Positions 17,889 through 18,192 of a stretch of 64,000 nt of DNA are shown here, one piece after another. The translations under genes and the position numbers were made by a program. Within the stretch, counting starts at the first letter, position 1. The number at the start of each line of letters is the position of its first letter. Source of the stretch: Klebsiella phage RCIP0020; the sequence record OR532814.1; one strand, given 5' to 3'. The notes below the pieces were generated by a model that was given only the letters and a program-made list of their open reading frames with translations, was not told the origin of the DNA and did no database searches.

Positions 17889-18192
17889 ACATACCTCAAT
17901 TTTTCAAAGAACGGGGTTATTGTAGTAACTTACGAAATGAAGTCAATACAAAAAACCATAAAAATTTTGATCAATAATACTTGATCTGATCAAATTTATG
18001 ATCTATAATTTATTAATTAATAATTATTTTACTACAATGATCATTGTAGGTCAAGTACTAAAATCAATAAATTTTATATAATTTAGATCTGATCTATAGA
18101 TCATTAGATCTACTTTAACCTTAAATAATATAGAATGAAATTTGATTTTGTCTACAGTTATTATATAATATTCTTAACTTCAAAGAGGAAAT
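17889..18192. promoter_or_regulatory. divergent AT-rich intergenic region with clustered GATC palindromes (candidate origin/regulatory region)
   Basis: About 300 bp with very low GC between divergently transcribed rnh (-) and gene 55 (+). Contains TGATCTGATCA, AGATCT twice and a perfect 12-bp palindrome GATCTATAGATC. Confidence 0.5.

Follow-up and report, generated by a model that had tools for sequence, protein, structure and literature searches.

Clustered GATC sites in a face-to-face promoter cassette repeated in three intergenic spacers of Slopekvirus genomes: a possible Dam-responsive early promoter and origin element

In the T4-like Klebsiella phages of the genus Slopekvirus, rnh, encoding RNase H, and gene 55, encoding the late sigma factor, diverge across 304 bp of non-coding DNA, a spacer that raises the question of why DNA with a G+C content of only 0.217 should carry nine copies of the palindrome GATC. 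We analysed this rnh|55 spacer at positions 17889–18192 of a 64,000-nt stretch of the genome of Klebsiella phage RCIP0020 (OR532814.1), referred to below as the window. A sequence-only reading of the same DNA had singled out the divergent AT-rich junction for its unusual GATC density and had offered a Dam-sensitive regulatory region, an origin of replication or the breakpoint of an inversion relative to T4 as possible explanations. Here we describe a dyad promoter cassette that holds part of this cluster and recurs in two other spacers of the genome. We favour, tentatively and with rather less than even confidence, the interpretation that the rnh|55 spacer carries a methylatable cassette of early promoters that face each other, and that it belongs to a set of three such nodes, which possibly double as T4-type origins that combine a promoter with an unwinding element.

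The nine GATCs begin at 17969, 17983, 17988, 18000, 18039, 18086, 18091, 18099 and 18107 (nos. 1–9 hereafter) and thus fall within 142 bp of AT-rich DNA, at a density far over the genome average of 6.6 per kb. Across 5000 dinucleotide-preserving shuffles of the spacer the count averaged 0.99 and never exceeded 5, and no other 150-bp stretch of the window holds more than 5. For a genome-wide view we used the near-identical phage RCIP0002 (OR532796.1, 174,243 bp; window position = genome position − 63,330), in which the rnh|55 cluster is the densest of the entire genome. The other palindromic tetramers in which each of the four bases occurs once are not enriched in the spacer (GTAC occurs once; CATG, CTAG, ACGT, TCGA, TGCA and AGCT do not occur), and within the central 176 bp (17950–18125) GATC accounts for 18 of the 34 G/C bases. 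The G+C content of the spacer compares with 0.415 for the window, and that of its densest 150 bp is 0.19. The unusual GATC density at a divergent AT-rich junction that had been remarked upon is therefore confirmed, with nine sites where about one is expected. As a separate observation, GATC is over-represented in the window as a whole (411 versus 281 ± 15 from shuffles, or about 6.6 per kb, compared with 1–2 per kb in the T4 regions examined), and CTAG is very rare there (n = 19).

Many of these sites lie in larger palindromes. Every palindrome and AGATCT site previously listed is present in the sequence: TGATCTGATCA at 17982–17992, AGATCT at 18085 and 18106, and GATCTATAGATC at 18091–18102. 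The last three make up a block of overlapping palindromes with GATC, 27 bp long, AGATCT-GATCTATAGATC-ATT-AGATCT (18085–18111; GATC nos. 6–9), which lies 30–57 bp upstream of the −35 hexamer of the gene-55-proximal promoter described below and belongs to none of the predicted promoters. GATC no. 1 sits in the palindrome TTGATCAA (17967–17974), an inverted repeat just upstream of the cassette, and a perfect 18-bp palindrome that had been overlooked, CTACAATGATCATTGTAG (18032–18049), has GATC no. 5 in its middle. As a DNA hairpin CTACAATGATCATTGTAG has a predicted folding energy of −4.3 kcal/mol (z = −3.4). The palindromes in general fold to weak hairpins (−4 to −5 kcal/mol), and cruciform formation as a stand-alone explanation of the locus is not compelling.

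A consensus scan for sigma70 promoters predicts four promoters in the spacer, each agreeing with the consensus at 10 of 12 positions; we consider it very probable that they are real. They are already known as predictions, as the GenBank record of KP27 holds the same four as in-silico features. The two outer ones are P_rnh (TTGACT-16-TACAAT, 17946→17919, minus strand) and the proximal gene-55 promoter P_55 (TTGATT-16-TATAAT, 18142–18169, plus strand). Nested between them is a dyad cassette of about 78 bp (17980–18057, plus strand), of the form cTTGAyC-N13-GATC-TATAAT-(16 nt, A/T only)-ATTTTA-N17-GRTCAAgta, that contains GATC nos. 2–5 and two promoters that face one another, P_A (TTGATC-17-TATAAT, 17981–18009, plus strand), directed towards gene 55 with a predicted start at about 18016, and P_B (TTGACC-17-TAAAAT, 18054→18026, minus strand), directed towards rnh with a predicted start at about 18019. 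Their −10 hexamers are 16 nt apart, and the 28 bp from TATAAT through ATTTTA (18004–18031), which include both hexamers, consist of A and T only and are a candidate unwinding element. Since the two predicted starts nearly coincide, some 3 nt apart, we infer that the cassette holds only one RNA polymerase at a time and that P_A and P_B would compete for the same DNA. The GATCs are interleaved with these elements: nos. 2 and 3 lie in the −35 hexamer and spacer of P_A, no. 4 abuts its −10 hexamer, and the 18-bp palindrome around no. 5 fills the spacer of P_B.

The cassette is not confined to rnh|55. Searches with the spacer match four places in most Slopekvirus records, and these resolve into four cassette copies in three spacers: one at rnh|55, two in tandem beside gene 3, and one, inverted, upstream of uvsY. 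The gene-3 spacer, between gene 3 and its divergent neighbour (genome positions 151,506–151,874), holds a second GATC cluster, with seven sites in 150 bp at a G+C content of 0.15; the third spacer, between gene 24 and uvsY (11,097–11,397), was reached through a search for GATCTATAAT, five of whose six genomic copies lie in the three cassette spacers. All three share the unit cTTGAnn-N13-GATC-TATAAT-(15-16 nt A/T)-ATTTTA-N17-GAYCAAgta, and the facing geometry of P_A and P_B recurs in the other copies. An nhmmer profile built from the four copies finds those four only in the genome (E 1e-11 to 3e-16), and a pattern scan of IMG/VR for the cassette core returned Slopekvirus contigs together with single, apparently chance matches in unrelated contigs. 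The three spacers are also the genome's three most AT-rich stretches at all window sizes from 60 to 300 bp, the 28-bp core at rnh|55 lying within the third-ranked region. In 0.56% of the genome they contain 14 of its 88 strong promoter-like matches, of which 7 include a GATC, as against 8 of the 74 elsewhere. A strong predicted cassette promoter in the uvsY spacer (11231–11259, minus strand) reads antisense into gene 24, a late gene, without any gene that it could serve.

Together the three spacers carry 24 GATCs in 983 bp, 21 of them in the context WGATCW, and their most enriched hexamers, at 18–29 times the compositional expectation, are TAGATC, TGATCT, TTGATC and AGATCT. Among hexamers seen at least five times TAGATC is the most enriched (16 on both strands versus about 0.5 expected), and five of the nine genomic copies of TAGATCT are found here. 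TTGATC and its complement GATCAA act as predicted −35 hexamers in several cassette copies, and within the cassette GATC occurs mainly in the form TAGATC or TTGATC. The GATC that abuts the −10 hexamer, at −16 to −13 of P_A, is common to all four copies; the remaining GATCs occupy non-homologous positions, so the density has not merely been inherited with the repeat. This pattern points to selection for GATC, or for a short word that contains it.

What might such sites do? The Slopekvirus dam gene encodes a D12-class adenine methylase (Pfam PF02086, E 2e-34) that is closely homologous to T4 Dam over its full length (PDB 1YFJ and 1Q0S; E 1.5e-84), a homology from which its GATC specificity is deduced, and dam and dcm have been reported in all Slopekviruses examined (PMC5219037). 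With a T4-type Dam encoded, methylation of the GATCs in phage DNA is to be expected. As in Dam-regulated promoters, GATC lies within or abuts the predicted core promoters and a GATC adenine methylase is at hand. We propose that the phage enzyme and host Dam would leave the GATCs N6-methylated on infecting DNA and hemimethylated after fork passage. The three cassette spacers would serve as early initiation nodes at which host RNA polymerase fires immediately after infection; transcripts entering the A/T core could prime or open the DNA, as at T4 oriF and oriG; and the methylation state of the clustered GATCs may tune promoter use, melting or SeqA binding, thereby coupling activity to the first round of replication.

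The origin component of this proposal leans on T4, where five origins are known without a common motif and only two are understood mechanistically (PMC3016281). Both oriF and oriG consist of a promoter and a downstream A+T-rich unwinding element, the transcript forming a priming R-loop, and oriE, oriF and oriG are all found close to strand switches of transcription, where nucleotide skew shifts as well (PMC3016281). In the Slopekvirus genome, cumulative GC skew reaches a local minimum at rnh|55 (81 kb) and its global minimum at 154 kb, some 2 kb away from the gene-3 spacer (151.5–151.9 kb), and these two minima are the genome's two divergent strand switches. The cassette is thus located near a strand switch and skew shift, as oriF and oriG are, and an A+T-rich element downstream of the promoter is present in the 28-bp core, on composition only. 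According to the T4 record, oriF lies at the 5′ end of uvsY and its primer is the uvsY transcript, which the cassette directly upstream of uvsY matches; the other two are antisense to the genes that contain them, oriG to gene 34 at a distance of 2.2 kb upstream of rnh, and oriE to gene 5 at 3.4 kb from gene 3.

A further line of evidence comes from the sister genus Pseudotevenvirus. The rnh|55 synteny, with a spacer of about 320 bp, is kept in RB43, RB16, CfP1 and GAP161, and RB16 has its own repeated cassette at rnh|55, between gene 3 and the next gene, and between gene 24 and uvsY. This element of about 110–170 bp (L023:31085-31406, L024:3758-4028 and L025:5750-6020, with a relative in a divergent metagenomic contig at L074:1016-1342) shares 55–114 bp between copies at 86–100% identity. 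It is present in 63 of 63 Pseudotevenvirus records at one to three detectable places (two or three in nearly all) and annotated in none. Its core is invariant and composed of A and T (ATTTTTATATTTTATATATAGAGAAAA), and is bordered by polar arrays, with CGAAG only to the left and CTTCG only to the right. A 7-bp inverted repeat varies through compensatory changes, appearing as AACTACA/TGTAGTT, as ATGTAC/GTACAT and, in the divergent metagenomic contig, as GGGTAT/ATACCC; 96% of its cells pair, with double changes in six of the seven pairs, compared with 14–46% pairing in slid controls. One variant of the repeat is found at every locus examined in RB16 (three) and in GAP161 (two), and the copies therefore evolve in concert. 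Strong predicted promoters flank the cassette and point outward, including one antisense into the late gene 24 (RB16, L025:5768-5796, minus strand). The layout of the Pseudotevenvirus element resembles an origin. Scans anchored on gp55 in IMG/VR (8 loci) and metagenomes (5 loci) found no intermediate between the genera, except for the divergent Pseudotevenvirus-type contig L074.

That three non-coding positions are kept across two genera, each with its own dyad element, is in our view the strongest argument for a function beyond ordinary promoters. The architecture of the sequence, the number and sites of the cassette copies and the presence of dam are established. We consider it fairly probable that the cassette has a function in cis of that kind. 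A Dam-dependent effect at the cassette is a possibility we take seriously but would not assert, and that the cassette is a replication origin seems to us somewhat more doubtful. Broader, and in its entirety rather unlikely, is the conjecture that in the RB43-type relatives of T4 (Slopekvirus and Pseudotevenvirus) the sequence-related dyad cassettes at fixed positions, those upstream of rnh and uvsY and those next to gene 3, are the replication origins, the Slopekvirus version having been rebuilt from facing host-type promoters with Dam sites, so that the methylation state of infecting versus replicated DNA would control both origin firing and early transcription.

Several observations weigh against a methylatable promoter cassette that doubles as an origin. 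Pseudotevenvirus keeps the three spacers with only two or three GATCs each, so GATC density is not required for the general function of these spacers. The spacings between the Slopekvirus sites (14, 5, 12, 39, 47, 5, 8 and 8 bp) show no clear helical phasing of the kind that paired SeqA binding would favour, none being a whole number of turns, although 12 bp is near one. T4's oriE, oriF and oriG were checked for GATC enrichment and none was found, and the MotA box core TGCTT (or AAGCA) is absent from the rnh|55 spacer, where sigma70-type promoters are predicted instead. The positional match to T4 is exact for oriF only and regional for oriG and oriE, and GC skew tracks gene orientation, hence is not independent evidence. 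Within Slopekvirus, KMI7 and one metagenomic genome have lost single GATCs. Of 114 records, 107 show a spacer identity of at least 99%, but whole genomes are equally similar (about 99%), which makes spacer identity uninformative on constraint.

Measured against these points, the proposals of the sequence-only reading fare unevenly. The suggested origin gains from the AT-rich core, the predicted promoters, the strand switch and a uvsY copy at the place of oriF, and loses from the lack of a MotA box and from T4 origins that are not GATC-rich. The suggested Dam-sensitive region, likewise viable, has in its favour the encoded homologue of T4 Dam and the GATC abutting the −10 hexamer in four of four copies. 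Conservation of the palindromes among relatives, which had been put forward as a check, is negative in the sister genus, where the spacer has two or three GATCs, and is uninformative among Slopekvirus genomes that are about 99% identical. One Slopekvirus record, CPRSB (OM971649.1), appears to have lost five of the GATCs, which might be taken to mean that they are dispensable; we discount it as an error-rich assembly, since its genes are fragmented and its alignment to window positions 9889–26192 (16 kb) contains 339 substitutions along with 619 indel columns. The substitutions in CPRSB are about threefold enriched at GATC and mostly G→A. We speculate that these may be methylation-dependent base-calling errors, which would hint at methylated GATCs.

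Of the explanations that compete with our proposal, we regard three as open and two as unlikely. The best survivor, though we consider it distinctly less probable than the interpretation given above, is an ordinary cluster of strong early promoters in which the GATCs are incidental to a promoter consensus (TTGATC as the −35 hexamer, GATC ahead of the −10) that gene conversion has spread and locally homogenised among a few repeated promoters, with no role in origin function or methylation. Divergent operons are known to use promoters that face each other. All four predicted promoters match 10 of the 12 consensus positions and point into the flanking genes, the one GATC common to all copies is part of a promoter, and early promoters in AT-rich spacers are normal in T4-like phages (PMC1524935, PMC2839356). 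Against this stand the GATCs at non-homologous positions, the majority between copies and spacers, whose density shared descent fails to explain; the block of four at 18085–18111 outside any predicted promoter; the lower frequency of GATC in strong promoter-like sites elsewhere in the genome; and the cassette promoter that reads antisense into gene 24 with nothing to serve.

The enriched words could instead be iterons or operators, TAGATC(W) or AGATCT being recognised by a phage or host DNA-binding protein with Dam irrelevant or merely modulating. The rank of TAGATC among the hexamers and the concentration of TAGATCT in the cassette spacers fit such sites, as do five AGATCs in the uvsY spacer that share one orientation and lie 39–54 bp apart. 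The polar CGAAG arrays at the same loci in the sister genus would fit a diverged specificity, and iterons that contain GATC have a precedent in oriII of V. cholerae (PMC2865523). What makes this explanation improbable in our judgement is that in the rnh|55 and gene-3 spacers the words follow no regular orientation or spacing, that sites of the TGATCA type do not fit TAGATC, and that no candidate protein emerged from a scan for DNA-binding and initiator domains, in which the neighbouring small open reading frames and the gene beside the gene-3 cassette match only families of unknown function.

Slightly less probable again is a recombinogenic cassette akin to the PeSLs of RB49 and phi1, the main evolutionary effect of which is to rearrange the genome; recombination between copies would have made the rearrangement junctions, and there would be no dedicated function beyond promoters. 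PeSLs are early promoters of sigma70 consensus with AT-rich upstream DNA and stem-loops that often lie between the −35 and −10 hexamers; each genome carries about 50 of them, located upstream of ORFans in hyperplastic regions, and they function as terminators and are associated with genome plasticity (PMC2839356). P_B, with an 18-bp palindrome between its predicted hexamers, has exactly this form. Moreover, the gene neighbourhood differs from that of T4 at all three cassette loci, where, besides the changed partner of rnh, uvsY adjoins gene 24 rather than gene 25 and genes 3 and 2 are separated by an additional gene, and one cassette copy is inverted. These differences may also fit origins or repeated cassettes that act as recombination hot spots, perhaps shaping the RB43-type topology. 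The Slopekvirus cassette thus shares with PeSLs the sigma70 promoter and its AT-rich upstream DNA; it lacks the terminator stem-loop and the dozens of copies. It is found in four copies in three spacers between core genes, a terminator scan of all three spacers found no terminator-like site, and the stem-loop is restricted to one copy, as CTACAATGATCATTGTAG occurs only in the rnh|55 copy when the four are aligned. Positions that remained stable across two genera while the sequence was replaced argue for a position-linked function, and hence against this account.

The two remaining explanations are unlikely. Phage P1 pac carries clustered TGATCA/G hexamers, and a Dam-regulated packaging site of this kind might be seen in the three TGATCA and several TGATCT or AGATCA words within about 140 bp of a phage that has Dam; this is very improbable, given that T4-type phages package by the headful from concatemers and have no unique pac site, that there are three loci and not one, that TGATCA is absent from the other two spacers, and that deposited genomes begin at many different positions. 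Least probable of all is that the cluster was left behind, as scar or by-product, by the inversion separating this genome type from T4: the synteny break suggested by the sequence-only reading does exist in a trivial sense, rnh adjoining gene 34 in T4 and gene 55 here, at a breakpoint of the RB43-type topology that is shared by KP15 (PMC2993671, PMC1524935), but it cannot account for the GATCs, because the junction is found in all Pseudotevenvirus and Slopekvirus records examined and the cluster in Slopekvirus only, the same cassette lies in two other spacers and a ninefold excess of one tetramer is left unexplained. The comparison with the sister genus effectively refutes it.

The surroundings of the cassette can be described briefly. 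The window belongs to a T4-like Klebsiella phage of the Matisse/KP15 type, and 96 deposited genomes, Matisse, KP15 and KP27 among them, match the 2.4 kb around the spacer at an identity of 99% or more. On the left, rnh (16953–17888, minus strand; an open reading frame annotated as RNaseH, or RNase H/flap endonuclease, in Matisse, KP27 and RCIP0002) ends a leftward block of replication genes that includes 32-59-33-dsbA. On the right, the open reading frame of gene 55 (18193–18720, plus strand) opens the rightward block 55-47-46-td-nrdA onward; its start differs by record, being 18193 in Matisse and KP27 and an ATG 9 nt downstream (window position 18202) in RCIP0002. A coding explanation for the spacer can be set aside, as its open reading frames of at least 20 amino acids are all short (20–86 amino acids) and unannotated in most records, and an Rfam scan of 17700–18400 on both strands at E up to 1 matched no family.

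Both proximal promoters have counterparts in the sister genus. That of P_rnh, TTGACT-16-TATAAT, is annotated in CfP1 and also present in RB43 and RB16, and that of P_55 in RB16 and RB43 is TTGAAA-17-TATAAT. The motif AAATAATATAGA (18123–18134, plus strand), 42–55 nt upstream of the predicted P_55 start, is common to Slopekvirus and Pseudotevenvirus; it sits at the position of an UP element for P_55 and has been kept across the two genera though the centre of the spacer has been replaced. At the opposite edge, the border motif ACGGGGTTA (17911–17919, plus strand) forms, on the minus strand, a G+C-rich stretch directly downstream of the P_rnh −10 hexamer. Its general form, ACGGGG(W)TA or ACGGGGTAA, has eight genomic copies, four of them at the edges of the three cassette spacers; those outside the window are at RCIP0002 genome positions 11109, 151554 and 151825. 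The motif trails an outward-facing −10-like hexamer as a discriminator-like stretch in the window, and apparently also at two of the three other border copies.

In the literature collection that we searched, no description of the GATC cluster or of the cassettes at the three loci came to light. The definition of T4 origins is a long-standing question that is still open, and three homologous, compact cassettes whose positions echo oriE, oriF and oriG give it a testable handle, the more so as two sister genera offer two very different sequence solutions at the same three positions. If the broader conjecture above is correct, a lytic T4-like phage would possess a Dam-coupled origin system, and a cassette would have been swapped wholesale between genera with its positions kept. 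To our knowledge T4 Dam has no clear physiological phenotype; if Dam gates the cassettes, the phage enzyme would have a role beyond anti-restriction. Among therapeutic Klebsiella phages, Slopekviruses rank with those isolated most often, the collection searched containing over 100 of their genomes, and their early control or origin elements matter for engineering. Should the cassettes prove to be plain promoters, they would still provide a useful annotation of the three strongest predicted early promoter nodes.

Comparison with better characterised systems places the cassette between several of them. Dam-responsive promoters with a GATC in or next to the −10 or −35 hexamer include IS10 pIN, which opposes pOUT, as well as P1 cre and Mu mom. 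Like pIN and pOUT, the predicted cassette promoters face each other; a GATC directly adjoins the −10 hexamer on its 5′ side in all four copies, and several −35 hexamers contain one. In contrast to IS10, whose transcripts overlap by about 35 nt, the predicted starts in the cassette nearly coincide, and the spacers carry far more GATCs than the switching of a single promoter needs. GATC-dense origins are known from oriC and from V. cholerae oriI and oriII, the iterons of oriII each containing a GATC and binding the initiator only if fully methylated (PMC2865523). The cassette spacers share with these origins a very high GATC density in A/T-rich DNA and an available Dam enzyme; they differ in their irregular GATC spacing and in belonging to a lytic phage, for which once-per-cycle control has no obvious meaning. 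A search for the DnaA box found none in the three spacers, the single match having one mismatch.

With T4 oriF and oriG, the cassette has in common strong predicted promoters beside the genome's most AT-rich DNA at a strand switch and skew shift, and, as the primer RNAs of oriE and oriG are antisense to late genes, so the predicted promoter in the uvsY spacer is antisense to gene 24. The promoters of oriF and oriG are middle promoters that depend on MotA, with a TGCTT box at −30. The Slopekvirus cassette may work in the way of a T4 origin, but on promoter class it falls outside that group; the RB43 group as a whole is without motA or a middle-promoter consensus (PMC1524935). A second departure from T4 is that the Slopekvirus promoters are paired face to face in an element repeated with recognisable homology. 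The Pseudotevenvirus cassette, for its part, is unrelated in sequence, carries GC-rich CGAAG/CTTCG arrays and has no internal sigma70 promoters, and yet it resembles the Slopekvirus element in occupying the same three spacers, in forming a dyad around an A/T core, in its flanking outward promoters and in having copies that evolve in concert.

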